A program made the position numbers and the translations under genes. A stretch of DNA of 64,000 nucleotides. Source: Candidatus Cloacimonadota bacterium. Lineage in GTDB: Bacteria > Cloacimonadota > Cloacimonadia > Cloacimonadales > TCS61. The notes under the pieces were generated by a model, which was not told where the DNA came from, ran no database searches, and was given only the letters and a program-made list of their open reading frames with translations. Of this stretch, positions 8,485 to 57,618 are shown in pieces. Where the stretch lies: NCBI GenBank assembly GCA_021734245.1, contig JAIPJH010000006.1, positions 5,194 to 69,193 on the forward strand, given 5' to 3'. Every line of letters starts with the position of its first letter. The stretch's first letter is position 1.

Positions 8485-9021
8485 TTATTTATATCACTTA
8501 TTATTGTTTGAAATGCATAGTTTTAAAGCATAGTTTTTGTGTCAAGTTCGGTTTGTTGGGCAATTATATTTGAAATCACTGAATAAAATCTGTCAAAATC
8601 CTTTAAAGTTTGAATTGTAAGAATTTCATTTCGCATAGATTAAAATAAAGTAAAAAAATTGAACTTTATTCAATTCAATTATTATATAAATTATTGAACA
8701 AGGAATTTTGAAAACTTTGATACCAAACAGAAATAACGAATTTTACATATGTATAATATTTCTTGACTGATAATAATTTAATTAAAAAATAAATTAAAAT
8801 TAAAAAAACTTCTTGACCTAACTTCCTAAATTGGAGTTTTTTACCTATTGGATAATGTGAAATACAGCAAGATTCTCATAACTATGCATTATAACTATTC
8901 AAAATCCACTTTTTAGAATTATTTTTTTGGTAATTTTTGTTTTTTTTAAATGTACGTGCGCATGCATGTGATTAATAATGTGTTTAATGATAATTTAATA
9001 AAATTTTTCTTAGGAGGAAAA

Positions 9022-15000: not shown

Positions 15001-15012
15001 CTGATGAAATAG
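9022..15012 (+). CDS. Giant secreted surface protein (1996 aa): two internalin-type LRR modules, three PKD domains, three copies of an unassigned 180-aa domain, two copies of a second unassigned domain, and a T9SS-type C-terminal sorting domain
   Basis: The ATG at 9022 lies 4 nt after AGGAGG, followed by signal peptide MKFILTFFVVFFIFAGLCAQ. There are 22-residue LRRs (LTNLERLFADGNQIVDISPV...), PKD motifs (WSWDFDNDGTIDSTDENPIYTY...YTVSLTV), and a C-terminus NYPNPFNPETTISF...GVYFYKMKA. Confidence 0.85.
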   Translation: MKFILTFFVVFFIFAGLCAQTYVPDANFREAINDELGQPVGYDPTIADLNSLTGLLDVGDEGILSIEGAQYLTGIDRLYIDDNQISNLSPVAGLTNLERLFADGNQIVDISPVANLTALVQLKLDGNLIVDISAVSGLTDLYYLDLGENQIEDISPLSTLTTTSWIYLDNNQISSISALEGLVELDRLYLHNNKITEIYHLVQNAGLESGDLIYLERNGVSNPLSVEALAVHVPALEARGVDVHYPASPNLEAACYPDPEREDNTVSPANVYFTWQGSDNPADVTYKIWAGISIASMNYYGDGVHGSGTEWTSNGVVYLSSNMDMYWQIETVTTTGSLWSEIWHFSTPDANAVFADFSADQTTVTNATPITFTDESYGSITTWSWDFDNDGTIDSTDENPIYTYTTSGTYTVSLTVGNGIDTDTETKVDYITVDFVTPEFTDLGLLQSNDQSTWTPVNGSMYDYSMLLDPTEQYYFLDMTAASATNTPLQVGLHPFYFDGVPAGFFDYWAAKNVFDGCVPVDPNLPWEPIMYQIISSNLPVFYISYAADGSWQLVDGLLYELDGTQDDFRVNGDYLIGDYTITGNVTGANGIQSEDISVDIEFYTFEPDFEADQTSVIPGTTVQFTDLSNETPTAWSWDLDGDGIEDSDLQNPTFTYNTVGTYDVTLTVEWGAYDDTETKTEYIVVADLVVPDENFREALNDILGEPSGYYPTIADLNGITGTVDVSDEEIISIEGAQYLTGIDRLYIDDNQIVDLSPIAGLTNLERLFADGNEIIDISAVANLTALDQLKLDGNEIVDISAVSGLTNLYYIDLGENLIVDISPLSTFTTTSWIYLDNNFINEISALSGLLELDRLYIYGNEITDIYPLTLNTGFGDDDVLYLERYGYGNPISHESMNVYIPILETLGFSTLQYPSAANLEAACYPVPNRDATGVSLSADLQWQGNFPTDNATYKVWFGEAADNLSYVGDAISLGGNMYSFTPTLALNGEYWWRIECVGATETVWSGLWHFELQTIQLPEFTDMALNKAFDPVNGPWTAVSSTSMYDYSMTLDPNDPFVVADYYFLDIDNTVAATNMTIDSGQHPFYLDVTSVPDDFYTYWAANNVTETYATNNPGTWQALMWPIINGTEPMFLIDYNNIVPNGYFLLDGLQWAQGNVSNFIINSDYPAGDYVVSGNIESGTLVSNDIEFDLSLSRDIPEFTDLALIQAFDPVNGPWTAVPSTSNYDYSMILDPNDPFVIEDYYFLNIDNAVATTNIELQAGQHPFYLDVTSVPDDFYTYWAAKGVDGTVYTAPEDLWKNFMWPIINGTEPMFLIDFNNIVTNGYFLLDGLQWAIGDVSNFIINSDYPLGDYVVTGTVLGANLEPSEDISFNMNFHGISADFEADATSVTNGTEIQFTDLSTGNPTTWEWDFDNDGIIDSTDENPAYTYPGGGTYTVSLTVSNGTDTDTETKTDYITVAGTHFVKCWSGNGYQNMTFHIYDAAMNGEDLDVGDEIGIFDGNLCVGSLIYNGDLPFQMIASQDDPDTPESDGFSEGHDITFKLWNESSSTEYLVPEEPSYLTGDVTFTQYGTAFTKLFGYDVNALAQDIPLYNSWNLVSTYVQPYDLDMAAIFDHLIYTDALVKVQDESGNALFEIPGDDWYNGIGDLTYTEGYYTKVNADNDLYIFGDDFVTLPIDIQLSAGWNIISYPCNTSQAALPVIQPLIDLGVLEKVQNEMGLAIWFDGTNWLNQINTFYPGDGYFIKVNADCTLTIDVPTDVVARYKNAQHSNEPLNRETYHFQPEWQNNPFLPMNFYINDLEVAGVTLEANDELAVFDGDLCAGTAQVGENDMISLIAATDDVTTTEIDGFTNGNDFTFRFWDSSTDTEYSDFQYTNLSGNATFLSQGTTQSSIEFLPTSGGANLVPVTTEMFQNYPNPFNPETTISFGINDAAHVTLEVYNIKGEKVTTLIDGNLEADYYNVVWDGTDSNNKRVSTGVYFYKMKADKFVQTKKMILMK
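12076..13155 (+). repeat. In-frame 540-bp tandem duplication (two units) inside the giant gene
   Basis: The units start at 12076 and 12616 (cctgaatttacagat...). Long identical stretches include cttcagttccggatgacttctacacttactgggctgct and tgtggcctattattaatggcactgaacctatgttcct. Confidence 0.85.
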
Positions 15013-19333: not shown

Positions 19334-20506
19334 CTATTTTCGGAAATAATTCCCAATAAACAGCTGCCATCCTGTAGCAGAAAAATCAAGTTTTTGATAT
19401 TCAGTCAGCAGATCATCGTAGGTGTCCTGAGTTGTTGGAAACCAGATCGACGCTCTTCCAGCCGGATAATTCTGGGTGCCATTCGGATTGTGCAGATCAA
19501 TATAATAATCATATATGAAAATTTCATCCAGTAAATCCAGAATATCGGTGCAGGAATTTATCAGATCATCATTCTGGGCAGTGCTTTTCACAATTGAAAA
19601 ATAATCATAAATATCAACATCTGCCTGCAGATCGTTAAATACCACTGCACACTCATCCCGACTTTGAGCAAAAACATCAAAAGAAGCTGCCAGCCAATCT
19701 TCCACAAAATCATAAAGTGCAATTACCAGATCATCAAAATTTGCAGTTTTAACCACTCCCAAGGCTATCTCATAAGGAATAGAATTCGGATTTTGACTTC
19801 CCTGCGGCATATAGGAGTTCACAAAATTTACTGCCATTTGCTGAACCAATGCATCAACAGATTCGTAATCTTCCCACATTGTTAAAAATTCATCGTAAGG
19901 AGAACCGTCCGGACAAATAGCAGCTTCGGAACCCATTATATAATCCGTGTATGGAAAGATCTCGGTGATCACTTCCATCGTGAGCATATTGCAGGCATCC
20001 AACACCAAAATATCAAGATGGAAATTTATGTTCTGCATTGCCATTTTGAATTCTTCATCAGGAACACTTATGGCTGAATTACTATCGTTATCAGGACAGA
20101 ACTTATTGTAAGCATTATACCAGCCGTTTCCATGACCCCAGATGAAAAGTGCTTTCTTCTCGGCAGGATATTTATCAAAAGCCCAATTAGCAAATTTGGT
20201 AAGATTGTTGTAATAACCGCTATCGATCTCGCCCAGATTTGAAATCAAGGTTTTTGTTCCCGGCAGGATTTTGTATCGCTTTGCAGTAGGGTCGTCACTC
20301 AGTTCAGATTCATCAATTTGAACAATAACATTTACATCATCAGAAAACTGACCGAGCATCATTTCCTCTATATCGGCAAGCGCATCTGCATTCAAACCAT
20401 TATCGGCAGCCATGTAAACCAATATCGTCCAGTCTGCTTCTTTTTCTTTTTCGGAGCAGGAAATTAACAATACAACCAGAATTAGAAGTGTGATCCATCT
20501 TAGCAT
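19334..20506 (-). CDS. Clostripain-like cysteine peptidase (family C11) lipoprotein
   Basis: The ATG at 20506 follows GGAGGA. Lipobox LLISCSE. His/Cys dyad context ILVYMAADN...FIWGHGNGW...LVLDACNM. Confidence 0.7.
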   Translation of the reverse strand: MLRWITLLILVVLLISCSEKEKEADWTILVYMAADNGLNADALADIEEMMLGQFSDDVNVIVQIDESELSDDPTAKRYKILPGTKTLISNLGEIDSGYYNNLTKFANWAFDKYPAEKKALFIWGHGNGWYNAYNKFCPDNDSNSAISVPDEEFKMAMQNINFHLDILVLDACNMLTMEVITEIFPYTDYIMGSEAAICPDGSPYDEFLTMWEDYESVDALVQQMAVNFVNSYMPQGSQNPNSIPYEIALGVVKTANFDDLVIALYDFVEDWLAASFDVFAQSRDECAVVFNDLQADVDIYDYFSIVKSTAQNDDLINSCTDILDLLDEIFIYDYYIDLHNPNGTQNYPAGRASIWFPTTQDTYDDLLTEYQKLDFSATGWQLFIGNYFRK

Positions 20507-20554
20507 TTTTTCCTCCAGGAAAAATGGAGCAGCTTTCACTGCTTAAAAAATTAT

Positions 20555-36179: not shown

Positions 36180-37262
36180 ATGAAAAACTTTCGATTAGTT
36201 TTTGTTTTATTTTTTATTTTCAGTCTAAACCTGATCTGGAGTCAAAGCATCGCACGCTGGTATACTTCGATGGGAGATTTTGAAGTAACATTGCGCGAAG
36301 ATCTGATGCCGATTACAACAAATAACTTTCTGGACCTAACCAATTCAAACTTCTATGATAACCTGATTTTTCACCGTGTTATTGCAGATTTCATGATCCA
36401 GGACGGCTGACCACTGGGAACAGGCTACGGAGGTCCGGGCTATACAATTCCAGATGAATGGAATCCACTGGTAAATTATAATGAACCTTATGTAATCGGA
36501 ATGGCAAACACTGGCGCACCAAATTCTGCTGGATCACAATATTTCATAACAGTAGAGCCGACAACCTGGTTGAATGGCGATTATGCTGCTTTTGGTCACG
36601 TGACAATGGGAAGCGATATCGTGGAAGACATCAGTGAAGTTCCTACAGATGCAAACGATAAACCGTTAGTTGACGTTGAGATCGACAGTGTGCGAATTAT
36701 GACAGCACAATTTTACGGGTTCAGTCCCGAAGAAGATTCGCTTTATGTGAATGCCGGCGATCCGCTGGTTTTCGGAATGCTTACAAATGAACCGGATGTA
36801 ACTTTCAGTTGGTACGTGGACGATGAACTTCAAACCGAAACAGGTTTTCTTTTCAATGTTTCGCTTACTGTAAATGGTTGGCATGAAATCGTGGGAATCG
36901 GTACAAAAAATGGCTATGATTATGCAAAAACCTGGTGGGTTGAAATAACAGGAGGTTCTCATCTTGATGATATTCTAACGGCAAACAAAAATGTTCTTCT
37001 GCCAAATTCACCTAATCCATTCAATCCGGAAACGAATATTTCCTTCTATTTGAATGCTGCTGAAAAAGCCGTTTTGAAAATTTACAACGCAAGAGGAGAA
37101 TTGGTGAAAATTCTGGTTAATTCTCAGCTTACAGCCGGTTTCCATTCCTATATTTGGAATGGAACAGACTCTTCCAACCAAAATGTTGCCAGCGGAATTT
37201 ATTATTATCAACTTCGAGCAGGAAATCAAACACAAACCCGCAAAGCACTTTTATTGAAATAA
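36180..37262 (+). pseudogene. Secreted cyclophilin-type peptidyl-prolyl isomerase with a T9SS-type C-terminal domain, interrupted by an in-frame TGA at 36408-36410
   Basis: ORFs 36180-36410 and 36501-37262 share one frame. The continuous reading [30 protein letters not shown]...MANTGAPNSAGSQYFIT gives the cyclophilin core. C-terminus NSPNPFNPETNISF...GIYYYQLRA. Confidence 0.65.
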
Positions 37263-44612: not shown

Positions 44613-45063
44613 ATGGGAAAAACAAGCAAAACCTTTTATAGTAAACATTTCAATGGTTTGTTATTTGTGCAAACGGTTGAAACCGTTGACCGATATATTT
44701 CTCTTATCAAGATTCTGGCCTTTGTTTTTGCTGGTCACGCCGGTATAATTGAACAATATCCTAATATAAATGTTGAGGAAGAAATTATCCCGAAAGCAGA
44801 TATTACTTTTAATATCTATCCCAAATCCGTTTAATCCCACTGTTACTTTCAAAATTAAAGCAGAAGATTATGACAATCTTCAAATTGAGATTTTTAACGT
44901 AAAAGGGCAAAGGATAAAAACCTTGCCTGTCATCCTGAGCGGAGTAGAAGGGTCTATCACCTGGAACGCCGAAAACCAAGCTTCCGGTGTGTATTTTTGT
45001 AAGCTTGTAAACCTCGAAACCAAGAAGCAGCTTGCTTTGCAGAAAGTAACGTTATTGAAATGA
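44613..45063 (+). pseudogene. Frameshifted remnant of a T9SS-cargo gene (orphan C-terminal sorting domain)
   Basis: Frame 0 reads ..ADITFNIYPKSV*. Removing one A from ccaaat (about 44821-44826) gives NIYPNPFNPTVTF...GVYFCKL. There is no signal peptide in the upstream part, and a MITE-end-like motif cctgtcatcctgagcgg lies within. Confidence 0.5.
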
Positions 45064-47833: not shown

Positions 47834-47960
47834 TGCAAATTTAATTTATAAATATATATAATGTCACCAACTTACAAAAAAAATGAGTTTCACCTTGAAA
47901 AAAAGTTCTTGTCAAGAAGTCGGCAGAGAATTTTGTGAGGTCTAAGAATGTGGGGTATTG

Positions 47961-50900
47961 ATGCTTAGAAAGCTCATTATTCTGGTAAGTTTGTTTTTAC
48001 CATTATGTCTTCTGGCAAATTCGTTTGAAGTTATTGAAATGGAAGAAGATTATTTAATGGTAAAATTTACTCTTCCAGATTATCAAATTGAGAAAGTTGA
48101 AAGAAATAGTGTACAATATGATCGCATCTTTTGTAAAGGCGCTGCTTACACAAATGATCGTGATCGTTATGTACTGCCATTTTTTGGTGAAACTATCGGT
48201 TTGCCAATTGATGGAAATATGCATATTCGCATCATCGATCAGCATCAAACCAAAATTTCCACAAATTTTTTATTGCCTGTTCAAGAATCTTTTTATGAAG
48301 AAAATCCAAATGGAAGAAAAAAACAGAGATCAAACGAGCTTTACCCTCCCCTATTATTAAAGAAAAACGAACCGGCATATCTGGGAGATAGATATTTTTG
48401 TGGATTCAGTATTTTTCCTTTTCAATATAATGAAGCAACTAAAACAATAAAAGTAACTACAGAATTAACTTTTAGAATCGACATCGAAGGTGTCGATAAC
48501 GGGCGATCTACATTTACAAGAAGTGAAAATTTCATCGATAAATACGGAGACGAATTTTTCCTGAACAATCGTTTTTCGCAAAATTGGCGAAGACCGCGGG
48601 AAAACACTTCTGGTTCTTATTCCAGCAATCGAGACGGCGATCTTGTTAATGAAGTTCAGATTATTGTAGATGAAGAAGGAATCTATAAAATAACTCGCCA
48701 AATGCTGCAGGATGCGGTATCCGATCCTGAATTTCCCATCGATTTTGAAATGGCTTTCGATTGGAATGATATCGATCCACGTTTTCTGGAATTGAGAAAT
48801 GAATATGGTGTTGTTCCCATAAACTTTGTTGGTGAAGCTGACGGTTCTTTCGATTCAAATGATTATTTCGAATTCTTCGGAGACAGGCATAACGGCGATA
48901 ATGAATTCAACGACGATTTTACAGCAGAAAACGTTTATAATCTTTCTTTAGAAGATCATTTCGGAAGCCGCATGGCTATCGAAAATGGTGGTTTGAATGC
49001 CGTAAATCCGAATGCCATAACTGTGCCAACCTCCTTCCTGCAAACTGTAAGAATTGAACAGCAAAGCTTGACCGATCTTCTGGTTGCTCAATGGGAATTT
49101 AATACACCTAATTTCTTTAGAGAAGATATCTGGTTCTGGGATAAAATTACTGCTCCCAGCCTGCATGCCTATCCTTTTGATATCCAATATCCGGTTGAAT
49201 CAAATAGCCGTCGATTTACTGCAGAGGTTTGTTTGTTTGGTCTTACATATAATCGTTATAATTACGAAGAAATCAATCATAAAGCTCAGATAAATATCAA
49301 TGAAACACTGATCGACATCGATGAATGGTATGGTCAAACTGAAAAGATATTGAACAACAACGATAATCCACTTGTAAATCTTCATTTGCAGCATGGAGAA
49401 AATATTCTTTATGTAAATCTTCCAGGAATTCCCGGCATTGAAAATGAAAGCGTTTTACTTGATTATCTTGAATTGAATTACTGGCGTGAATATAAAACAG
49501 ATACGAACTATCTCCATTTTCAACGTCCTCCCGATCAATCCTCAGGCATCTATGAATTTGAACTGGAAAATTTTTCCACTCCCGATATTTCAGTTTACAA
49601 ACTCGGCTCCAGTAAATTTGAAAATGTACTCATAACTCCTGACGATGATACAGGTGGTGCGCCATACATGGCTACTTTTCAAGACAGTATAAACCTGGAT
49701 TCCTTTGAATACATCGCTGTTACCGACAGCATGAAAAAAGTTCCGCTAAAGATTCAGCCAAATCTTCCGTCATCTTTGCGTGATCCTATGAATTCAGCGG
49801 AGTATATCATTATTACTGCTCAAGAATTTAAGCAGAATGAATTTTTGCTGCAGTATAAACAAGTTTGGGAAGATGAAGGTCATGTTCTTAAGATCGTATC
49901 CGTAGAAGATATATTTGACGAATTCAATGGTGGTATTCGATCTGCAGAAGCAATTCGAGATTTCTTGAGCTATGCCTACAATAACTGGAGTGCTACATTA
50001 CTTTCTCACGTGTTGCTGTTGGGTGATGGCCTTACTGATGAACGAGATAACAGTCCACTTCGTGGAAACAATTTGATCCCTTTCAAAAACGTTTGGGTTG
50101 AAGCTCGTGGTGCTATTGCCAGCGATAATTGGATGGCTTGTATTATCGGAGACGATCCGGTAGCCGATATCAGTATCAGCAGAATCACGATCTGGCAGGA
50201 AGATCAGATCGGACCTGTTTTGGATAAATCTATTTATTATAAAAATACAAATAACTTTGAAGATTACTGGCACAGCAATGTTACACTTGCAGCCGGCGGA
50301 AATCCAGGTGAAGGCTCTTTTTTCGCTTTGCAAAGTGAAAATGTTCGTCATACTTGGATACCAGACAAGTTCAACGTAAAAAGAATATATTGTAATGTGC
50401 AAAATCTGCCCTCAGGATATTTTGGTAACACAACCAGTCTAATCAGCAATATCAATGACGGATCTGTTTATGTTCAATTTATGGGTCATGGTGGCGGCTA
50501 TGTCTGGGCAGATTATAACCTTTTGAATAAATATGATATTAATACATTTAATAATGAGAATTATCCACTTGTATCCAGCCTTTCCTGTTATGGTTCGGCT
50601 TTCAATTTTGCCGGCTCCTCCTGCATCGGAGAAGAACTGATCCTTACACCGGGCAAAGGAGCGATCGGACATATCGGTTTTACAGGTTATGGCTATTTGA
50701 ATGCTGATGAATATTTTGCACTTAAGATCAATCAGGCACTTTTTGGTCTTAACATGTCGAACGTAGGTGAAATAGTTGATTTCACCAAGGCACAATTCTA
50801 TGCCCATTATGGAAATGGTGCAATTGGTAATGCTTTAACAAGCGGTTGCGCACTTCTGGGCGATCCATTTATCAACATTTACATTCCCGATGAAACAGTT

Positions 50901-52952
50901 GATATTGAATTGAATGATCATAACCTTGCTGTTGGTGATACATTGCAATTTTCAGCATTTGTAGGTAATGATATCGAAGAAGGAAAATTCGTAATCTATG
51001 ATGAAAATGATATTCAACTGCCTTTGAATCTATATTTTCCCTTTAATATTCCAAACACAAATGGTTATATTAATGGAAGTTTCATAATTCCTGATGAATA
51101 TAGCGGAATTACGAATCATTCAGTAAAACTTTTTGCTCAAGGACCAGAAAAAGAACTGGTTGGAATTGACGACTATTCGATTGGTCAAGCGGTGCTTTCC
51201 AACCTGACAATAACTCCCGAGCAACCAACAGAATATGACGAAATAATGATCGGAGCTGATTTCTTCGATGAAGATGGAATCGATCAAGTTAAGTTTTATA
51301 ATCTTTCCGAAGGATATGCTTTGGATATGGTAAATGTGGAAGATAATTATTATCAGCTAAACCAGATACTTCCTCCACACATTCCCGGCAGTGATATCGA
51401 CTTCCGATTTAAGATCTTTGATGCTATCGGAGACTCAACTACAACTGATAATTATGAAGTTATTATTGCAGGACCTGATCTCTGGTTGGAACATATTCAG
51501 TTATCTGAATTTAATAATGAACCAGCAGTTAAACTTTTTATGCGAAATATTGGTGAAATCGATGCTCCCGGATTCAACCTTAGAATATATGATGCTCTGG
51601 ATAATTATAATCTTCTGTCTACTCAAAGTATCGATCCTTTAGCAGTATCAGAAGGAAGATGGGTTTATGTTCCGCTTCCACTTATGAATAATTTCTCTAA
51701 ATTCTTTGGAATTATCAATCAATACGGTGAATCTTTTGCGGAGATCACTCTTTCAAATAATATGCTGCTTTCCGATATATATCAGATGAATATGTATCTG
51801 GCACAAAATGGCACAGTAGCTACCTCTCTTGATAACAATTTTGAGTGCGAATTTTCGTCGGAGATTAACAGTTTGCAACCAATTATTTATATTAATGAAA
51901 ATGATTATTTGCAACCGCTAAATCAGCCTGACGTTTCCACTGTTGTGCTTCCTGATACCACATATTCCAAAGTATATGAAGTGGGAACTTTGAGTGAAGA
52001 TATTTTAGCAGATTCAATTGGTCATTTTGTGAATAATGGCAGTATGACAATTCGCATAAATTACAGCTCTACCGATTCTTTAACTCAGTATCTGGAAAAC
52101 CAGAATAATTTTAATGTTTATCGCTGGGAAGATTATTATGAAAAATGGATAAAAATCGGTGGAACGCTTCACACTGATGAAGATTATATCGAAGTAGAAG
52201 TTGATCGAATAGGAACTTACACTATTTTACACAATCAAGATACTACCATTCCTTTTGTAGAAGTAAACGTCGAAGATCAGGAATTGACGCAAACTTATGC
52301 TTCACTAAGCAATCCTGATTATATTAAAGTTGGCTATATAGCAAAAGATGGAATTATTTCATACACTATCTTCGATAAAAATGGTATTGATATTTTTGAC
52401 AGAAAACTATCGCTTCAACTGGATGATGGAACCAATGTAACAGACATAAATGAAAATGAATTTTCTTTGACTGCAACCTATAACAAATTAACAGAATTAC
52501 CTGTAAAATATCAACTTCCAGATTTGGCAAAAGGCCAATACACTGTTATCCTAAATTGCCATGATGTTAATGGAAATCCCAAAAATATGGTTTTCGAATT
52601 TTCGGTAAATTCCAAATTTGATATTTTAAATTTTGCAAATTATCCAAATCCAGTTGAATCAAACACTTTGTATCCCGAAAATGAAGGACGAACCCGTTTT
52701 ACCTATGTATTAACAGATGATGCCGATGAAGTTTATATTAAAATCTATACCGTAAGTGGAAGATTGGTAAAAACATTCAGAGATTTACCAAGTGCTGTTG
52801 GTTATCATGAGTTTCCACGCTCTGATATTGGTTGGGATTGCCGAGATAATAAAGGACATTACCTGGCAAATGGCGTGTATTTTTATAGAATAACAGCAAC
52901 CAAGGGAAATAAGCGAATCCAGAAAACTCAGAAAATGGCTATTTTAAAATAA
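47961..52952 (+). CDS. Peptidase C25 (gingipain/PorU-like) protein, 1663 aa, with a T9SS-type C-terminal sorting domain
   Basis: Signal peptide MLRKLIILVSLFLPLCLLANS. His/Cys dyad FMGHGGGYVWAD and SSLSCYGSAF, with the His and Cys 33 residues apart as in gingipains. C-terminus NYPNPVESNT...GVYFYRITA. Confidence 0.7.
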   Translation: MLRKLIILVSLFLPLCLLANSFEVIEMEEDYLMVKFTLPDYQIEKVERNSVQYDRIFCKGAAYTNDRDRYVLPFFGETIGLPIDGNMHIRIIDQHQTKISTNFLLPVQESFYEENPNGRKKQRSNELYPPLLLKKNEPAYLGDRYFCGFSIFPFQYNEATKTIKVTTELTFRIDIEGVDNGRSTFTRSENFIDKYGDEFFLNNRFSQNWRRPRENTSGSYSSNRDGDLVNEVQIIVDEEGIYKITRQMLQDAVSDPEFPIDFEMAFDWNDIDPRFLELRNEYGVVPINFVGEADGSFDSNDYFEFFGDRHNGDNEFNDDFTAENVYNLSLEDHFGSRMAIENGGLNAVNPNAITVPTSFLQTVRIEQQSLTDLLVAQWEFNTPNFFREDIWFWDKITAPSLHAYPFDIQYPVESNSRRFTAEVCLFGLTYNRYNYEEINHKAQININETLIDIDEWYGQTEKILNNNDNPLVNLHLQHGENILYVNLPGIPGIENESVLLDYLELNYWREYKTDTNYLHFQRPPDQSSGIYEFELENFSTPDISVYKLGSSKFENVLITPDDDTGGAPYMATFQDSINLDSFEYIAVTDSMKKVPLKIQPNLPSSLRDPMNSAEYIIITAQEFKQNEFLLQYKQVWEDEGHVLKIVSVEDIFDEFNGGIRSAEAIRDFLSYAYNNWSATLLSHVLLLGDGLTDERDNSPLRGNNLIPFKNVWVEARGAIASDNWMACIIGDDPVADISISRITIWQEDQIGPVLDKSIYYKNTNNFEDYWHSNVTLAAGGNPGEGSFFALQSENVRHTWIPDKFNVKRIYCNVQNLPSGYFGNTTSLISNINDGSVYVQFMGHGGGYVWADYNLLNKYDINTFNNENYPLVSSLSCYGSAFNFAGSSCIGEELILTPGKGAIGHIGFTGYGYLNADEYFALKINQALFGLNMSNVGEIVDFTKAQFYAHYGNGAIGNALTSGCALLGDPFINIYIPDETVDIELNDHNLAVGDTLQFSAFVGNDIEEGKFVIYDENDIQLPLNLYFPFNIPNTNGYINGSFIIPDEYSGITNHSVKLFAQGPEKELVGIDDYSIGQAVLSNLTITPEQPTEYDEIMIGADFFDEDGIDQVKFYNLSEGYALDMVNVEDNYYQLNQILPPHIPGSDIDFRFKIFDAIGDSTTTDNYEVIIAGPDLWLEHIQLSEFNNEPAVKLFMRNIGEIDAPGFNLRIYDALDNYNLLSTQSIDPLAVSEGRWVYVPLPLMNNFSKFFGIINQYGESFAEITLSNNMLLSDIYQMNMYLAQNGTVATSLDNNFECEFSSEINSLQPIIYINENDYLQPLNQPDVSTVVLPDTTYSKVYEVGTLSEDILADSIGHFVNNGSMTIRINYSSTDSLTQYLENQNNFNVYRWEDYYEKWIKIGGTLHTDEDYIEVEVDRIGTYTILHNQDTTIPFVEVNVEDQELTQTYASLSNPDYIKVGYIAKDGIISYTIFDKNGIDIFDRKLSLQLDDGTNVTDINENEFSLTATYNKLTELPVKYQLPDLAKGQYTVILNCHDVNGNPKNMVFEFSVNSKFDILNFANYPNPVESNTLYPENEGRTRFTYVLTDDADEVYIKIYTVSGRLVKTFRDLPSAVGYHEFPRSDIGWDCRDNKGHYLANGVYFYRITATKGNKRIQKTQKMAILK

Positions 52953-52954
52953 TT

Positions 52955-53968
52955 ATGAAAAAATATATTTGGTTATTGATTCTAATAAGTTTGGCAGTCG
53001 TCCAGCTTCATGCTGGATATTATGCTGGTGATTTCATGGTGATCGGAAACGGGGTAAGGCCTCTTAGTATGGGAGGAGCTTTTTCGGCCGTCGCAAATGA
53101 TTGTTCAGCAATTTATTGGAATGCGGCTGGACTGGCTCAAATTAGAAAATCCGAGTTAAGCATTAATCATTCATTCCTATACGGCAACCTGGCTTCTTAT
53201 GATAATTTCACTTTTTGTAAACCTTTGCCAAATGACGTAACAGTAGGTATAAACTGGACTCGATTATCTATCTCCGACATTCCCGTATTCCTGGAAGAAC
53301 ACCTGATTTACAATGTAGATTTCAGAAGTTCTTTTCTGGAATTTAATCTACCAGGCCAACCAGATGACATGATAAAGAGCGCTGATGATCTTTTTCAAAT
53401 TGCATTTGCCAAACATCTTCATAAAGATCTTTACTTAGGATGGTTATTTCTGGAATTACCGGTTGACTTCAATTTTGGAATCAGCGCAAAATATTTAAAT
53501 CGTAAAATAGACGAATATAAAGGTTCTGGAATTGGCTTCGATGCTTCCATATTATTTAAAACCAGTTTAGCTGTAATTATTGGAAGAAGCTGGTTGGGAG
53601 AATTTGCTTTTGGCTTGAATTATCAGGATATCAGCAATACAAAAATCACCTGGAATACAATGTCTAATCACTCAGATGAAGTAGAAGATAATGTAAAGTT
53701 GGGATTCGCTGTTATCCAACCTATTAAGAAATTTAATTCAGAATTGGTGATTGCTGCAGATATCGATTATATTTATGATAATTGCAATCATTATGGAATC
53801 GAATATAAATGTAAAGATTTAGTTTCAATGCGGATGGGTATCAACGACAATGATTTTACAACAGGCCTGAGTGTAAAATTGTATGATATAAACATTGATT
53901 ATGCTTTTACAACCAATGTTATTGGTAATACAAATAGGATAGGGTTAAGATATGAATTTGACAAGTGA
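52955..53968 (+). CDS. Outer-membrane beta-barrel protein, PorV/PorQ-like
   Basis: The ATG lies 2 nt after the upstream stop. Signal peptide, the motif RPLSMGGAFSAVANDCSAIYWNAAGLA, alternating beta-strand pattern, and C-terminal GLRYEFDK. Confidence 0.5.
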   Translation: MKKYIWLLILISLAVVQLHAGYYAGDFMVIGNGVRPLSMGGAFSAVANDCSAIYWNAAGLAQIRKSELSINHSFLYGNLASYDNFTFCKPLPNDVTVGINWTRLSISDIPVFLEEHLIYNVDFRSSFLEFNLPGQPDDMIKSADDLFQIAFAKHLHKDLYLGWLFLELPVDFNFGISAKYLNRKIDEYKGSGIGFDASILFKTSLAVIIGRSWLGEFAFGLNYQDISNTKITWNTMSNHSDEVEDNVKLGFAVIQPIKKFNSELVIAADIDYIYDNCNHYGIEYKCKDLVSMRMGINDNDFTTGLSVKLYDINIDYAFTTNVIGNTNRIGLRYEFDK

Positions 53969-54033
53969 TTTCACTTATTATCTTGACGGTAAAAACTTAA
54001 TGAATTTGTTAGGAAAACTTAAAGGAGCTTTTC

Positions 54034-54528
54034 GTGATTAAAAGAATATTAGTTATTGCAATGCTTATGCTGATTGTTTTGAGTGTAAATGCTCAAACTG
54101 AAACAAGCACATCTACTTCCAGTTATAATACTGGTTCCGTTTATATGTATTCAGGAACATTGGAAGGCACAGAACTTCTTAAAATTAAAACTTATATCTG
54201 GGGTCAGGTTCGAAAACCAGGTCTTTATATCGTACCAGATGATACAGACCTTCTTACACTAATATCTTCTGCCGGCGGACCTACAGAAAATGCTAATCTT
54301 ACAAAAATAAGAATTATTAGATCTGTAGAAGGTGAAGAGAAAGTAATGTGGGTCGATCTTCAGGAATATATTGATAACGGCGATTACAATTTAATCCCAA
54401 AATTGCAACCTGGTGATACTGTTATCATTTCAGGTTCAGCTTATTATGCATTCACAAAAGCAGTTGCCTGGATTTCCCAGATTGCAGTTATTTTGTCAGT
54501 ATACATTTCGGTAAATAATATACAATAA
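54034..54528 (+). CDS. Small SLBB-domain polysaccharide-export-like protein (164 aa)
   Basis: GTG start 7 nt after AAGGAG. Signal peptide. GQVRKPGLYIVPDDTDLLTLISSAGGPTENANLTKIRIIR is an SLBB/Wza-type motif. C-terminal hydrophobic helix. Confidence 0.6.
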   Translation: MIKRILVIAMLMLIVLSVNAQTETSTSTSSYNTGSVYMYSGTLEGTELLKIKTYIWGQVRKPGLYIVPDDTDLLTLISSAGGPTENANLTKIRIIRSVEGEEKVMWVDLQEYIDNGDYNLIPKLQPGDTVIISGSAYYAFTKAVAWISQIAVILSVYISVNNIQ

Positions 54529-54542
54529 ATAAGGATTTTTTA

Positions 54543-56828
54543 ATGGAAAACAAACAATTGAATCAATATTATGAAAGCATAGAAGAACAGGAAATAAAGT
54601 TATCAGATTATATTAGAATAATCTCAACTTTCAAATGGTTAGTGATCTTTGTATTCTTAGCAGTTTTTGCTGCCACGGTTATCTATACAGCTCGTTCTCC
54701 CAGAATATATAAGGCAACTTCAAAAGTCTTGCTTCAGGAAAAGATGACAAATAACCTGCTGTTCACAGGTTTCAATAATACAGCTTCATCGATTAACAAC
54801 AATATCCAGATTTTGAAGAGTTATCCTGTATTACAACTTACATTTCAGCTTCTAAAACGAGATAATGATTTTGATTCTTTTCCAATCAATCAAATCGAAG
54901 GATCTCCCGCAGGATATATAAGAGAAAATTTATCTGTAGATACTGAACGGGAAACCGATATAATGATTATTAATTTTGAATCTACAAATAGTGTGGAAGC
55001 GAAAGCAATAGCAAATGCTGCTGCAAGAGCACTTATGCAGCAGGACACCGATTATGCAAGAATTGAATTTCGTAGTACAAGAGAATTTCTGGCAGAACAA
55101 CTGGAAGATAATGAACGCCAATTAATGGCAGCAGAAGAAGAACTCAGAAATTTTAAACTGGATAATAATATTTCTCTGCTTACGCAAGAAACCGAGCAGC
55201 TTATCGAGCAATCTGCAGAACTTTCTGCCTTACTTTCGGCTGCCGAAACTGAAAGAGATGTTTCGCGAAAGCACGTTAATTATCTCCAAAACGAATTATC
55301 TCAACAAGACACATTTCTTCTGGATGTAAACAGTGTCTTGACTTCTCCGCTTCTGGAACAATTGAAAACGGAAATCGTTGCAAATCAGACCCAATATGTA
55401 AACCTTTTGACCAGATTGGAATATTCTCCCGATCATCCTGAACTGTTAGCTCTGAATAAAGCAATTGAAAGCGCTAAAAAAAGATTGAATGATGAAATTC
55501 AAAGAATCAGCTCTGTTAATACAGGTTCCTCCGATCCCCTGCAATATCGAGCTTCTTTGATAGACAAAATTTCCGCAGCTAAAATTGAACTAAATATTAA
55601 TGAAGCAAAAGTGGCAAGTTTACTGAAAGCGGTAGAAGCATACAATCAGAAAATGTCACTTTTACCTGATACGGAAATTGAACTGGCTAGATTGGAACGA
55701 AGCTACAGAATTAGCGAAAAAACATATATTATGCTAATTGAAAAATATGAAGAAGCAAAAATCGTAGAACAATCAAAAGTTGGTAGTATTCGCCTGGTAG
55801 AAGAAGCTTTAGCACCAGAAAATCCCATAAAACCAAACATTAAAATGAATCTTCTGATCGGTATTGTGCTTGGTTTAGGTTTGGGAATTGGATTAGCTCT
55901 ACTTCTTCATTCATTAGATTCCAAAATTAGAAATTTCGATGATGTAAAAAGATATGTAGGACTTCCAGTATTGGGAACTATTCCGCTAATTCAGACTTCC
56001 GACTCTGATTTCGATGATGTGGAAAAAATGATGAAAACAGCCAAAGGTGAAGAGAAAAAGGAATTGGAATTAACCCTCCAACAGATGGACTCAAAAATAA
56101 TCAGTAACTACGCTCCAAAATCTTCAGCAGCTGAGTCTTTCAGGATTTTACGAACAAACCTGGTAGCCAAAAAGAAAGAAGATGAATCAATGAGTATATT
56201 GATCACCAGTTCAGGTCCCAAGGAAGGTAAAACAACTATTCATACAAATTTAGCAACTACACTTTCCCAAATGGATGCGAAAGTTATCTTAGTCGATTTG
56301 GATTTAAGAAGACCGCGTGTTCACAGCATGTTCCATATTCCCAAAGAAGATGGTATCAGTGATTTTCTGGTCGATAAAACTACTAAGTTAGAACCTTTTA
56401 TCAAGAAATCATCTGTTCCAAATTTAGATGTTATTACAATCGGTTATATACCACCTAATCCTTCTGAACTTCTCGCATCAAGTAGAATGGATGAAGCAAT
56501 AAAAATACTGAAAACAAAATATGACTTCATTCTATTCGATGCTCCTCCTGTAATTGCTGTAACAGATGCAATGATACTTGCTAAGAAAATAGATTATCTT
56601 TATCTTGTTGTAAGAGTTTCACAAGCAGATAAACTGGTAATAAAACGAGCCAAGGAGCTTTTAGAAAATATTGATGTAGATATTACTGGAGCAGTTATAA
56701 ACGGAATCATCCCTCAAAGCTATTACAGCAGCAGCGAATATCACTATTACTATTACTACTATTATGGAAAAGAACAGAAAAAGAAGCGTCTCTCTTCGAT
56801 CTTACGCAAAAATAAACCTGTTTCTTGA
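54543..56828 (+). CDS. Polysaccharide co-polymerase / bacterial tyrosine kinase (Wzc/GumC-like)
   Basis: N-terminal Wzz-type TM segment, a long coiled coil, a second TM segment, Walker A TSSGPKEGKTT, Walker B ILFDAPP, and a C-terminal Tyr cluster [16 protein letters not shown]. Confidence 0.8.
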   Translation: MENKQLNQYYESIEEQEIKLSDYIRIISTFKWLVIFVFLAVFAATVIYTARSPRIYKATSKVLLQEKMTNNLLFTGFNNTASSINNNIQILKSYPVLQLTFQLLKRDNDFDSFPINQIEGSPAGYIRENLSVDTERETDIMIINFESTNSVEAKAIANAAARALMQQDTDYARIEFRSTREFLAEQLEDNERQLMAAEEELRNFKLDNNISLLTQETEQLIEQSAELSALLSAAETERDVSRKHVNYLQNELSQQDTFLLDVNSVLTSPLLEQLKTEIVANQTQYVNLLTRLEYSPDHPELLALNKAIESAKKRLNDEIQRISSVNTGSSDPLQYRASLIDKISAAKIELNINEAKVASLLKAVEAYNQKMSLLPDTEIELARLERSYRISEKTYIMLIEKYEEAKIVEQSKVGSIRLVEEALAPENPIKPNIKMNLLIGIVLGLGLGIGLALLLHSLDSKIRNFDDVKRYVGLPVLGTIPLIQTSDSDFDDVEKMMKTAKGEEKKELELTLQQMDSKIISNYAPKSSAAESFRILRTNLVAKKKEDESMSILITSSGPKEGKTTIHTNLATTLSQMDAKVILVDLDLRRPRVHSMFHIPKEDGISDFLVDKTTKLEPFIKKSSVPNLDVITIGYIPPNPSELLASSRMDEAIKILKTKYDFILFDAPPVIAVTDAMILAKKIDYLYLVVRVSQADKLVIKRAKELLENIDVDITGAVINGIIPQSYYSSSEYHYYYYYYYGKEQKKKRLSSILRKNKPVS

Positions 56829-57618
56829 TATTCTTTCCAAGCGACGGGATGGTTATCATAATATCAGGACAATTTTTTCTGAAATAGAGATTTACGACCG
56901 CCTAAATTTTACTTTGACAAAAAATGGTGCTGTTCAGATTTTGTCAGACATGGACTTTGTAAGTGTAGATAAGAATTTAATTTATAAAGTCGCGGTCTTT
57001 ATAAAAGAAAAATTTAAAGTGAAAGAAGGTGCTGAAGTAGAATTGGAAAAGAATATTCCAATTTCAGCAGGATTGGGCGGTGGAAGCAGCAATGCTGCAA
57101 CTACAATAATTGCTTTGAACAAAATCTGGAATTTATACTTATCCCAAGATCAAATGCACGAAATTGCTGCTGAATTTGGAAGTGATATAAATTTTTTCCT
57201 TCATGGCGGAACTGCTATTGGAGAAAATCGTGGTGAGAAAATAGTTCCTGTTGATGATATTGAAATCGACAATATTTTCCTGGTAAATCCAGGATTTGGA
57301 ATTTCCAGCAGAGAAGCTTACCAAAATGTAGCTATAAGCACTCCCATTAGTAACTGGAATAAAATTTTAGAAACTGGAGATGTGAAATTCTGCTTCAATA
57401 AATTGGAATCTGGCATATCGAAATTTTATCCGGAAATAACAAATATTATAAAATATTTAAATGAGAATGGAGCTGCACAAGCTATTCTCTCTGGAAGTGG
57501 AGCTACAGTTATTGGCTTTTGTCCCAATAGAGAAATTGCAGAAAAATTCTCAGAATATTTTTCCAAGAAAAAGTATTGGAATTGCATTACAAAAACAATA
57601 AAAAGGAGAACAAAATGA
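56764..57618 (+). CDS. ispE: 4-diphosphocytidyl-2-C-methyl-D-erythritol kinase
   Basis: [20 protein letters not shown] and [14 protein letters not shown] (GHMP kinase motif). This is the only in-frame start, and it overlaps the upstream gene by 65 nt. Confidence 0.85.

Follow-up and report, generated by a model that had tools for sequence, protein, structure and literature searches.

The gene pair and its domain layout

Two adjacent genes in a 64,000-nucleotide stretch of Candidatus Cloacimonadota DNA (the window) encode a long, secreted C25-type peptidase and a smaller outer-membrane barrel. In Bacteroidota, PorU and PorV clip secreted proteins and anchor them on the cell surface, and the original prediction proposed a sortase/shuttle pair of this kind in a genome that did not look like that of a Bacteroidetes species; the host does belong to another phylum, the Cloacimonadota. 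The features of the pair are as follows (CTD, C-terminal sorting domain).

47961 to 52952, forward strand: long PorU-like C25 peptidase, 1663 aa (open reading frame; Pfam and NCBIfam matches; best PDB match PorU, 6za2)
48048 to 48566, forward strand: gingipain-type propeptide domain, aa 30-202 (Pfam Propeptide_C25, 31.3 bits against a cut-off of 22)
48654 to 49802, forward strand: PorU-type N-terminal domains, aa 232-614 (PorU profile NF033707; absent from the gingipain matches)
49803 to 50876, forward strand: Peptidase C25 catalytic domain, aa 615-972 (Pfam Peptidase_C25, E 3.9e-72)
50487 to 50489 and 50586 to 50588, forward strand: catalytic His843 and Cys876 (alignment with the PorU pair)
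50913 to 52361, forward strand: tandem beta-sandwich (Ig-like) stalk, aa 985-1467 (AlphaFold, Foldseek)
52362 to 52949, forward strand: PorU-homologous penultimate domain and divergent type-A CTD (PDB alignment, BLASTP, FlgD_ig 38 bits)
52955 to 53968, forward strand: PorV/PorQ-family outer-membrane beta-barrel, 337 aa, about 14 strands (NF033709, AlphaFold, Foldseek)

The barrel gene is translationally coupled to the PorU-like gene across a TAA-TT-ATG junction with a gap of 2 nt, just as had been read from the letters; a TTG one codon upstream, at 47958, provides an alternative start for the larger reading frame, whose 1663-aa product is 100% identical to NCBI K9N09_01975. Both proteins have signal-peptide-like N-termini, and each has hundreds of full-length homologues. 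The arrangement is a fixed one: the barrel gene lies directly downstream of the PorU-like gene in all 54 Cloacimonadota species loci (54/54); the gaps have a median of 9 nt and, with one exception, lie between -4 and 20 nt.

The larger protein runs from a signal peptide through propeptide, PorU-type N-terminal domains, catalytic domain and beta-sandwich stalk to a CTD of its own. The propeptide domain, which had been overlooked, lies upstream of the PorU model match (this begins at aa 232) and is found in most homologues. FMGHGGGYVWAD (from aa 840) and SSLSCYGSAF (from aa 872) bear out the predicted gingipain-type dyad of His843 and Cys876; the 33 residues between them match the spacing of the aligned H655 and C688 in the chain of 6za2. 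Also as predicted, the protein carries its own sorting domain, marked by NYPNPVESNT (from aa 1560) and GVYFYRITA (from aa 1638). In the CTD alignment this domain covers aa 1561-1663 and includes a 10-residue insertion, making it a distinct conserved variant unlike the CTDs of cargo proteins.

The unusual length of the protein, about 500 aa beyond that of PorU, had been noticed from the start, and it is made up of the N-terminal propeptide domain plus a stalk that exceeds the matching part of PorU by about 300 aa. The region from about aa 1000 to 1580 had been taken as non-homologous and unassigned, a view that can be abandoned: it forms the beta-sandwich stalk, and the last 200 or so residues of the protein are homologous to the PorU C-terminus. 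The AlphaFold model of aa 985-1663 (pLDDT 89.4) is almost all-beta, and a Foldseek search with it returned generic multi-Ig proteins and PorU itself, and nothing else. Pfam gives a weak DUF5125 match in the stalk region, and CARDB is annotated there in some homologues.

Relationship of the peptidase to PorU and to the gingipains

By sequence comparison, the 1663-aa protein is of the PorU type and is not a cargo gingipain, the grouping on which the original prediction depended. The NCBIfam PorU model (NF033707) matches aa 232-989 to model positions 8-749 of 1095 with 273.7 bits (E 3e-81), and the orthologue at another locus (L003) scores 244.9 bits on the same model. The closest PDB sequence match is PorU of P. 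gingivalis (6za2; E 5e-18, 67 bits), in two stretches, the second of which aligns aa 1468-1661 with PorU 964-1153. The annotated PorU of P. distasonis shares 24% identity over 419 aa of the catalytic domain (E 4e-16), and its tail is matched separately by BLASTP (E 4e-8). Gingipain entries in the PDB match at about 1e-6 (25-30 bits) and within aa 711-938 only, some 190-205 residues of the catalytic domain; because they are matched only in this stretch, gingipains show nothing that corresponds to the PorU-type N-terminal domains or to the tail.

One could still read the large protein as an ordinary secreted gingipain-like cargo protease that happens to lie beside a FadL-type transporter for hydrophobic substrates with which it has no connection, a combination to which we give very little credence. 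It would account for the gingipain-type propeptide and C25 catalytic domain, and for the names "C25 family cysteine peptidase" and "Gingipain R2 precursor" that NCBI has given to some homologues. The PorU profile, however, spans 750 residues including the non-catalytic N-terminal domains at 274 bits, whereas the genuine cargo-type C25 paralogues of Cloacimonadota reach only 65-67 bits and end in ordinary CTDs. The PorU-homologous C-terminal 200 aa and the divergent CTD described above also argue against it, as does the near-contiguous pairing of the two genes in 54/54 species loci and in other phyla; the barrel half of this reading is taken up below.

The relationship to PorU is nevertheless one of kinship. 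The score of 274 bits falls below the PorU equivalog cut-off of 420, and the PorU2 model (NF052324) gives 166 bits against a cut-off of 450; a true PorU from Eisenbacteria (L075) scores 595 bits on the PorU model. In all phyla tested, the long PorU-like proteins fit the PorU model better than the PorU2 model. Because every curated equivalog cut-off is missed, by the barrel as well (see below), the two proteins are relatives rather than members of PorU and PorV; they form their own clade, a distinct and longer variant of the pair. The predicted sortase/shuttle pair is partly supported, as far as family relationship goes but not as membership in the curated families.

The barrel and the genes downstream

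By profile and model evidence, the 337-aa protein is a barrel of the PorV/PorQ family. Its motif SMGGAFSAVANDCSAIYWNAAGLA begins at aa 38, as noted originally. The PorV/PorQ family model NF033709 matches over the full length with 87.3 bits (E 1.4e-24), 2.7 bits short of the cut-off of 90, and relatives in other phyla exceed that cut-off at 108-132 bits. On the equivalog models the barrel scores 19.3 bits for PorV (NF033710, cut-off 250), 32.7 for PorQ (NF033711, cut-off 220) and 86.6 for PorV2 (NF052325, cut-off 325); relatives in KSB1 and in a metagenome-assembled genome labelled "Bacteroidetes" reach 209-225 bits on PorV2. A BLASTP comparison with authentic PorV found nothing significant outside the N-terminal GGA...YWNxA motif.

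The AlphaFold model of the barrel (pLDDT 88.4) has an N-terminal helical segment followed by 14-15 long strand segments, as counted from the DSSP string only. The choice between PorV/PorQ and FadL had been named beforehand as a test of the prediction, and it came out in favour of PorV/PorQ, both in the family profile and in the fold search. The best Foldseek matches are PorV chains from SprA translocon complexes, 8gl6_F and 6h3i_F (TM 0.68-0.71, E 3e-12 and 6e-11). OmpG, TodX and FadL follow at E 2e-7 to 1e-6, with TM of about 0.5 for FadL and TodX, and the appearance of FadL and TodX among the matches is the remaining point in favour of a FadL-type transporter; PorV is ahead of FadL and TodX by about 1e5-fold in E.

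Two further genes follow the pair. These, together with a lipoprotein (X) that is usual in relatives and has been lost from the window locus, had escaped the original prediction.

54034 to 54528, forward strand: small SLBB-domain protein, 164 aa, with signal peptide and C-terminal hydrophobic helix (Pfam SLBB and SLBB_2; C-terminal part of TIGR03027)
54543 to 56828, forward strand: Wzc-like polysaccharide co-polymerase/tyrosine autokinase, 761 aa (Wzz, GNVR, AAA_31; TIGR01007 170 bits against a cut-off of 108)

A C-terminal Tyr cluster can be seen in the translation of the Wzc-like kinase. Among 39 Cloacimonadota loci, 33 have the Wzc-like gene after the SLBB gene, and 32 have X, SLBB and Wzc genes all downstream of the pair. 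PorU-like, PorV-like, optional X and SLBB genes recur in Calditrichota and Marinimicrobia amid different housekeeping genes. A new observation, then, is that PorU-like, barrel and polysaccharide-export-like genes form a conserved module across several little-known phyla.

This gene order raises a second alternative, in which the barrel, the SLBB protein and the Wzc-like kinase make up a polysaccharide-export translocon (an OPX-like protein and barrel composite), with the barrel as the polymer porin and the C25 protein as a mere surface protease. OPX proteins without a pore domain are known to form pairs with neighbouring beta-barrel porins (PMC9603273, PMC12819527), the adjacency of barrel and SLBB genes is kept across phyla, and the SLBB and Wzc-like proteins match exopolysaccharide-export models of the XrtA/PEP-CTERM system. 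At one locus (L064), moreover, a barrel relative stands directly before a Wza-like protein with Poly_export and SLBB domains and a Wzc, with no PorU adjacent. OPX proteins are, however, defined by the Poly_export domain and their partner porins are PgaA-like with 16-18 strands (PMC9603273), whereas Pfam finds only SLBB and SLBB_2 in the window protein, with no Poly_export, and the barrel has about 14 strands, belongs with PorV/PorQ and has PorV as its best match. The only polysaccharide-export complex among its listed fold matches is PelBC, at E 1e-4 and TM 0.38. No other gene is coupled to that of the barrel as closely or as consistently as the PorU-like gene (54/54 loci), and we regard the translocon as an unlikely reading of the locus.

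Candidate cargo, proposed role and known systems

Three other features of the window carry sorting domains.

8950 to 15012, forward strand: putative cargo, 2020-aa LRR/PKD surface protein with its CTD at 14758-15012 (Pfam LRR, PKD; Por_Secre_tail 28.8 bits against 27)
36180 to 37262, forward strand: putative cargo, cyclophilin-type PPIase with a type-A CTD (Por_Secre_tail 30.6 bits against 27)
44770 to 45063, forward strand: orphan CTD-only ORF of 97 aa, a cargo-gene remnant (NCBI gene call with Por_Secre_tail match; CTD alignment)

That these are genuine T9SS type-A sorting domains agrees with the original prediction, but the first reading frame and the remnant have the boundaries listed here instead of those first given (9022-15012 and 44613-45063), and the cyclophilin-type gene, though it has its type-A CTD, is broken by an in-frame TGA at 36408-36410. 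An alignment shows a type-A core common to four CTDs in the window, and two window proteins are above the Pfam cut-off for Por_Secre_tail. Proteins found with a CTD profile number at least 7,899, and Cloacimonadota contribute many of them; NCBI has already named many proteins of this phylum "T9SS type A sorting domain-containing". Both marks of T9SS cargo are present, the Sec signal peptide and the type-A C-terminal sorting domain.

No gene for SprA/Sov, PorK/L/M/N, PorZ or PorQ was found on the 78-kb source contig, and none for SprA/Sov, PorKLMN, PorZ or PorQ among the annotated subset of neighbours in related loci. The 79 related loci contain no ORF above 1,330 aa other than the PorU-like genes, the Cloacimonadota loci no second barrel near the pair, and in relatives the PorZ model gives matches at the level of the CTD only. 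The published hints on core T9SS genes in these genomes are weakly negative: TXSScan, with a threshold of at least 7 components, reports no T9SS in Ca. Cloacamonas acidaminovorans (NC_020449 scored 0), and the genome paper on Caldithrix abyssi reports no Bacteroidetes-type gliding machinery.

These hints, along with the broken cargo gene and the orphan CTD, would suit a pair that is left over from an ancestral T9SS, is decaying or has been repurposed, and no longer takes part in protein sorting. Such a relic is hard to square with two genes that are intact and full-length, at 39-100% identity across the phylum, with His843 and Cys876 each at least 90% conserved (39 homologues) and 36 barrel residues invariant among homologues; thousands of CTD-bearing proteins, many of them from Cloacimonadota, are likewise maintained in the database. 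We think it highly improbable that the pair is such a relic.

The reading we prefer, and consider likely, is that the gene pair corresponds, in Cloacimonadota, to the T9SS pair for surface attachment, and we infer that the PorU-like protein acts as a C-terminal signal peptidase/sortase. It would be exported by Sec, with the N-terminal gingipain-type propeptide probably keeping it latent, and would probably pass the outer membrane by way of its own uncleaved, divergent CTD. This CTD probably binds the co-translated PorV-like barrel of 14 strands, which would retain the enzyme on the cell surface, and the long beta-sandwich stalk probably lifts the catalytic domain above the membrane. The His843/Cys876 centre would then cut the type-A CTD off cargo, for which the LRR/PKD protein and the cyclophilin are the candidates in the window, and probably move the new C-terminus of the cargo onto a surface glycan. 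Behind this scheme stand the homology and fold of the proteins, the catalytic residues, the coupling of the genes, their conservation throughout the phylum and the type-A CTD cargo, while the enzymatic activity, the contact between CTD and barrel and the latency through the propeptide are inferred. More tentatively, the products of the conserved downstream genes (the SLBB protein, the Wzc-like co-polymerase/kinase and, in most relatives, X) may provide the polysaccharide that serves as anchor or carry it out of the cell, which we consider possible but somewhat doubtful; if so, their role would be like that of A-LPS and PorZ/PorQ in Porphyromonas.

Several known systems resemble parts of this locus. 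With Wza/Wzc (OPX/PCP) export, including class-3 OPX with its Wzp porin, it shares an SLBB protein, a Wzc-like PCP/BY-kinase and an adjacent barrel gene. The window SLBB protein differs from class-3 OPX in its length of only 164 aa and in the missing Poly_export domain, and the barrel differs from the PgaA-like porins of 16-18 strands in being PorV-like with about 14; assignment to the class-3 OPX and Wzp translocons was rejected on these features. The gingipains RgpB and Kgp have in common with the large protein a Propeptide_C25 domain, the C25 catalytic fold, Ig-like domains and a type-A CTD, but Cloacimonadota possess separate cargo-type C25 paralogues. Both window proteins also match PorU2 (NF052324) and PorV2 (NF052325), a putative second sortase/barrel pair, but at 166 and 87 bits they stay under the cut-offs of 450 and 325; a literature search turned up no paper on PorU2 or PorV2 under these names.

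The closest parallels are with the PorU/PorV pair itself. The barrel is shorter than PorV (337 aa against 345-400) and 14% identical to it, but like PorV of F. johnsoniae (6h3i_F/8gl6_F) it has a FadL-like fold of about 14 strands, carries the GGA...YWNxA motif in its N-terminal part and is encoded beside a PorU-type gene; its own role may be that of a shuttle, as for PorV, or that of an anchor, as for PorQ. The peptidase differs from PorU in being about 500 aa longer, in having an extra gingipain-type propeptide domain of some 200 aa at its N-terminus (the title of 6za2 describes authentic PorU as latent through dimerisation), in a catalytic-domain identity of only 24%, and in a profile match that ends at model position 749 of 1095. 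It is like PorU (PG0026, 6za2) in its C25 domain, in the aligned and equally spaced His/Cys pair, in its PorU-type non-catalytic N-terminal domains and in its homologous penultimate domain and CTD, and, as in P. distasonis, its gene lies directly upstream of a gene for a PorV-family barrel.

The candidate sortase and its barrel partner

Two adjacent open reading frames, both encoding signal-peptide-like N-termini, were called in a region of uniform G+C content (34-40%):

47961-52952 (+), C25-family peptidase of 1663 aa (PorU-like)
52955-53968 (+), predicted PorV/PorQ-family barrel protein of 337 aa

[quoted passage not shown] The junction reads TAA-TT-ATG, with stop and start two bases apart; His843 (within FMGHGGG) and Cys876 (within SSLSCYG) of the PorU-like protein are spaced by 33 residues; its C-terminal block NYPNPVESNT...GVYFYRITA is present, as is the barrel motif SMGGAFSAVANDCSAIYWNAAGLA. 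At 100% identity the two proteins match K9N09_01975 and K9N09_01980, which belong to a Candidatus Cloacimonetes MAG, and the window DNA is also contained in JAIPJU010000003.1 (78,176 bp) of GCA_021733965.1; the host is therefore a member of the FCB group outside Bacteroidota. A sigma-70 promoter scan returned 58 sites against 47 +/- 8 expected, and a scan of intergenic regions found no convincing terminator.

Pfam detected Propeptide_C25 (aa 30-202), Peptidase_C25 (aa 615-972, E 4e-72) and a FlgD_ig-type C-terminal sorting domain (CTD) in the PorU-like protein. The NCBIfam PorU model aligned aa 232-989 with its positions 8-749 at 273.7 bits, under the cut-off of 420, and the PorU2 model (NF052324) gave 166 bits, under its cut-off of 450. 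Since the PorU match starts at aa 232, the first ~200 aa are an addition relative to PorU, namely the gingipain-type propeptide domain. The top sequence match among solved structures was Porphyromonas gingivalis PorU (6za2, E 5e-18), aligned in two stretches that comprise the catalytic domain and the final ~190 residues, whereas gingipain structures matched at merely ~1e-6 across ~190-205 residues. The His/Cys pair aligned with chain residues H655 and C688 of 6za2, which correspond to the catalytic His657 and Cys690 of PorU, and the spacing counted along the alignment is 33 residues in both proteins. These two residues are at least 90% conserved among 39 aligned homologues. Annotated Parabacteroides distasonis PorU aligned at 24% identity over 419 aa (E 4e-16), with a further 23% over the C-terminal 200 aa. 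The authentic P. distasonis PorU and PorV were taken from a mislabelled PLSDB record (NZ_OY725768.1, 'plasmid 23'); this 388-kb sequence carries chromosomal efp, rsmA, mgtE, porU, porV and parAB, and looks like a chromosome fragment.

A useful control came from three Cloacimonadota loci that encode two further C25 proteins of ~1,250 aa each, immediately after the lipoprotein gene X described below:

L044:12032-19763, tandem C25 paralogues
L046:12044-19687, tandem C25 paralogues
L052:12016-19704, tandem C25 paralogues

These paralogues reached just 65-67 bits on the PorU model and end in ordinary cargo-type CTDs that score above the T9SS type-A sorting-domain cut-off. Together with the model and structure matches of the long protein, their low scores argue that the long protein is the PorU-like member of Cloacimonadota, as had been proposed, and that the paralogues look like gingipain-like cargo encoded beside the presumed processing enzyme.

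The unusual length of the PorU-like protein had also been remarked upon, and it is indeed far longer than PorU: a size of ~1,670 aa is kept throughout the phylum at 39-100% identity (median 1,672 aa, n=45 complete orthologues). The description of its middle as non-homologous and unassigned did not hold up. An AlphaFold model of aa 985-1663 (pLDDT 89.4, 40-sequence alignment) was nearly all beta, and Foldseek gave no matches other than PorU itself and multi-domain beta-sandwich proteins of a generic kind (titin-like, alpha-2-macroglobulin and complement MG domains). The supposedly unassigned region is thus a lengthened stalk of Ig-like domains, followed by a PorU-homologous penultimate domain and the CTD. 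The possibility that aa 1000-1580 form a new enzymatic module was rejected in view of these beta-sandwich domains. The CTD is itself unlike those of cargo, in that it reads PNPVESNT..., has a 10-residue insertion and ends in a conserved KMAILK tail; the variant form is also retained in a distant orthologue. The CTD of PorU is retained on the protein and not cleaved, and the variant would fit the same behavior here.

The barrel protein matched the NCBIfam PorV/PorQ family over its full length (87.3 bits, E 1.4e-24, cut-off 90), while PorV2 (NF052325; 86.6 bits), PorQ (32.7) and PorV (19.3) each fell well under their cut-offs. A sequence search of the PDB gave no match, and the BLASTP alignment with authentic PorV was confined to the GGA...YWNxA motif. 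An AlphaFold model (pLDDT 88.4, pTM 0.80, 50 homologues) has 14-15 long strands after an N-terminal helical segment, and its top structural matches were the PorV chains of Flavobacterium johnsoniae SprA complexes, 8gl6_F (E 3e-12, TM 0.71) and 6h3i_F (E 6e-11, TM 0.68). OmpG, TodX and FadL ranked next (2e-7 to 1e-6, with FadL/TodX at ~1e-6; TM ~0.5), and the lesser FadL/TodX matches are compatible with a PorV assignment because PorV is a FadL-type barrel. The choice between PorV/PorQ and FadL, which the original prediction had posed as a check, therefore fell to PorV, and the model supports a PorV/PorQ-family barrel.

Conservation of the module across phyla

At E <= 1e-3 the barrel family amounts to 6,917 representative clusters. 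Of the 569 relatives that a scan of species genomes brought up, the best 80 include ~58 Cloacimonadota species and relatives of 26-33% identity in Calditrichota, Ignavibacteriota, Neomarinimicrobiota, Zixibacteria, KSB1, Eisenbacteria, Poribacteria and others. Genes of the related loci were labelled by local ORF calling and iterative profiles. A PorU-like gene lies directly 5' of the barrel gene in 54/54 Cloacimonadota loci, at a median gap of 9 nt. With this adjacency, the PorU score and the PorV-chain fold, the best reading of the pair is still the one first proposed: it probably provides a sortase-like CTD peptidase and the barrel partner of a T9SS-type sorting pathway.

The association extends downstream. 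Among the 39 Cloacimonadota loci with >4.5 kb of sequence 3' of the barrel gene, 36 have X, 33 a small SLBB protein and 33 a Wzc-like protein; 32 have all three. X is a predicted lipoprotein of 250-290 aa, matched by no Pfam or NCBIfam model. Its gene separates the barrel gene from the SLBB gene, also in two loci of other lineages (L065 and L067):

L003:11038-11856, X
L004:11023-11790, X
L065:4013-4771, X (Calditrichota MAG)
L067:11012-11755, X (unclassified marine MAG)

X is missing from the window, where just 53969-54033 separate barrel and SLBB genes, and from its closest relative (L008); both have lost it. Displacement of X to elsewhere within the window was rejected, as tblastn found no trace of it throughout the rest of the window.

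L065 and L067 combine a long PorU-like protein (1,546-1,742 aa) with barrel, X and SLBB genes. Three Neomarinimicrobiota-type loci (L081-L083) have PorU-like, barrel and SLBB genes, and a fourth (L084) has the pair without a labelled SLBB gene. The surroundings differ greatly, with ftsH-folP-cdaA and prfB-lysS-lolCDE-clpB as neighbors in the Neomarinimicrobiota-type loci and proS-cinA ... ispE-prs in Cloacimonadota. Mere backbone synteny was rejected on this ground, and the SLBB linkage is therefore a property of the module and not of the general genome backbone. The long PorU-like proteins outside Cloacimonadota scored 219-310 bits on PorU and 196-225 bits on PorU2, under both cut-offs. The PorU model does work beyond Bacteroidota, as demonstrated by an Eisenbacteria locus with a bona fide PorU (595 bits). 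The PorU-like protein and its barrel belong to a distinct long-form clade, missed by curated models and current annotation, and this clade sits inside a conserved module with polysaccharide-export-like partners.

Two contigs in this set are probably misbinned or mislabelled: L050 (JAUWNO010000509.1; 1.9 kb), assigned to Armatimonadota, encodes a barrel that shares 55% identity with the query, and L083 (CAZVSF010000003.1), assigned to Lentisphaeria, has the gene order of the Neomarinimicrobiota loci. In Ignavibacteriota and related MAGs, a barrel relative without a PorU-like gene is followed by a conserved protein Y of ~185 aa, which has no Pfam match; the barrels beside Y score much higher on PorV2 (225 bits for L069).

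L069:11041-11610, Y
L070:11052-11594, Y
L074:10996-11562, Y
L076:4877-5443, Y

Sorting-domain proteins and the search for core T9SS genes

Three cargo candidates had been listed for this pathway. All carry a type-A CTD with the common core PNP...G...W...GxY...K, and the coordinates below are those called here:

8950-15012, LRR/PKD giant protein
36180-37262, cyclophilin-type PPIase, with an in-frame TGA at 36408-36410
44770-45063, orphan ORF of 97 aa with little beyond the CTD

The second of these is not intact, however. Its stop replaces a usually conserved Gly (FMIQDG*P instead of FMIQGGG), and a single GGA-to-TGA change, reflecting a pseudogene or a sequencing error, would explain it. The third is a cargo-gene remnant; the same CTD remnant is found in an independent Logan assembly contig (L002:~110-405). 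At least 7,899 proteins pass the cargo-CTD profile (8,000 candidates scored), and many of the Cloacimonadota matches are already named 'T9SS type A sorting domain-containing protein' by NCBI. The window also encodes a clostripain-family (C11) cysteine peptidase (19337-20539, -), beside nadC, nadA and nadB of NAD biosynthesis. Upstream of the window, the same contig carries an AbiEi/AbiEii toxin-antitoxin (abortive infection) pair (L006:3302-4514), with prmC on one side and an EPSP-synthase-family gene on the other.

What is known of T9SS mechanism stems almost wholly from studies of Bacteroidota. SprA/Sov, PorK/L/M/N, PorZ and PorQ were not found on the window or the whole 78-kb contig, and the annotated neighbors of related loci in several phyla were housekeeping genes, with no core T9SS genes. 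For Cloacimonadota, a 2024 paper goes no further than saying that T9SS 'may also be present', and the study it cites mentions just a CTD for surface attachment. TXSScan, which requires at least 7 components, gives zero for Ca. Cloacamonas acidaminovorans and also for Fibrobacter, and the Caldithrix abyssi genome paper reports that Bacteroidetes-type gliding machinery was not found. These results hint weakly that genomes with the module may lack the canonical motor. In our literature searches, no paper tied particular components of T9SS to either Cloacimonadota or Marinimicrobia, and none relevant to 'PorU2/PorV2' was found.

A possible link to exported polysaccharide

Two genes follow the pair in the window:

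54034-54528, SLBB protein of 164 aa
54543-56828, Wzc-like protein of 761 aa

The first product begins with a signal peptide and has a single SLBB domain; its C-terminal helix is hydrophobic, and Pfam detects no Poly_export domain. The second, a Wzc-like co-polymerase and tyrosine autokinase, ends in a Tyr cluster of the kind usual in such bacterial kinases; its ORF and the next, ispE-like (GHMP kinase) ORF (56764-57618) share 65 nt. Both proteins match XrtA/PEP-CTERM exopolysaccharide-export models, under cut-off. Polysaccharide export as the role of the barrel itself was retained as an alternative because one barrel relative (L064) adjoins a full Wza/Wzc pair with PorU not adjacent. It is nonetheless improbable: in known class-3 OPX systems the partners are a Poly_export-SLBB protein and a PgaA-like porin of 16-18 strands (PMC9603273, PMC12819527), whereas the SLBB protein of the window has no Poly_export domain and the barrel is not of the 16-18-stranded PgaA-like type.

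Under the preferred reading of a sortase and its barrel partner, the pair offers a likely processing route for the many CTD-tagged surface proteins of Cloacimonadota, a phylum that is common in anaerobic digesters and anoxic waters, where it is abundant. The identification also corrects annotations such as 'hypothetical', 'UPF0164' and 'gingipain', and the cross-phylum SLBB/Wzc-like link is a testable lead on the polymer that anchors cargo outside Bacteroidota. A bolder proposal, which we regard as speculative and rather unlikely, is that Cloacimonadota, Marinimicrobia and Calditrichota possess a self-contained attachment module consisting of the long PorU, the PorV-like barrel, lipoprotein X, the mini-SLBB protein and sometimes Wzc. 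Type-A CTDs would be cut off by such a module, and the cargo would be joined to a polysaccharide exported for this purpose by Wzc/SLBB, perhaps with no need for the canonical PorKLMN motor and ring. If the motor is truly absent, these phyla would reveal which T9SS parts are dispensable. As a version of type IX sorting, the module would then be reduced or ancestral, with its own exported polysaccharide as anchor in place of the A-LPS delivered by PorZ/PorQ.
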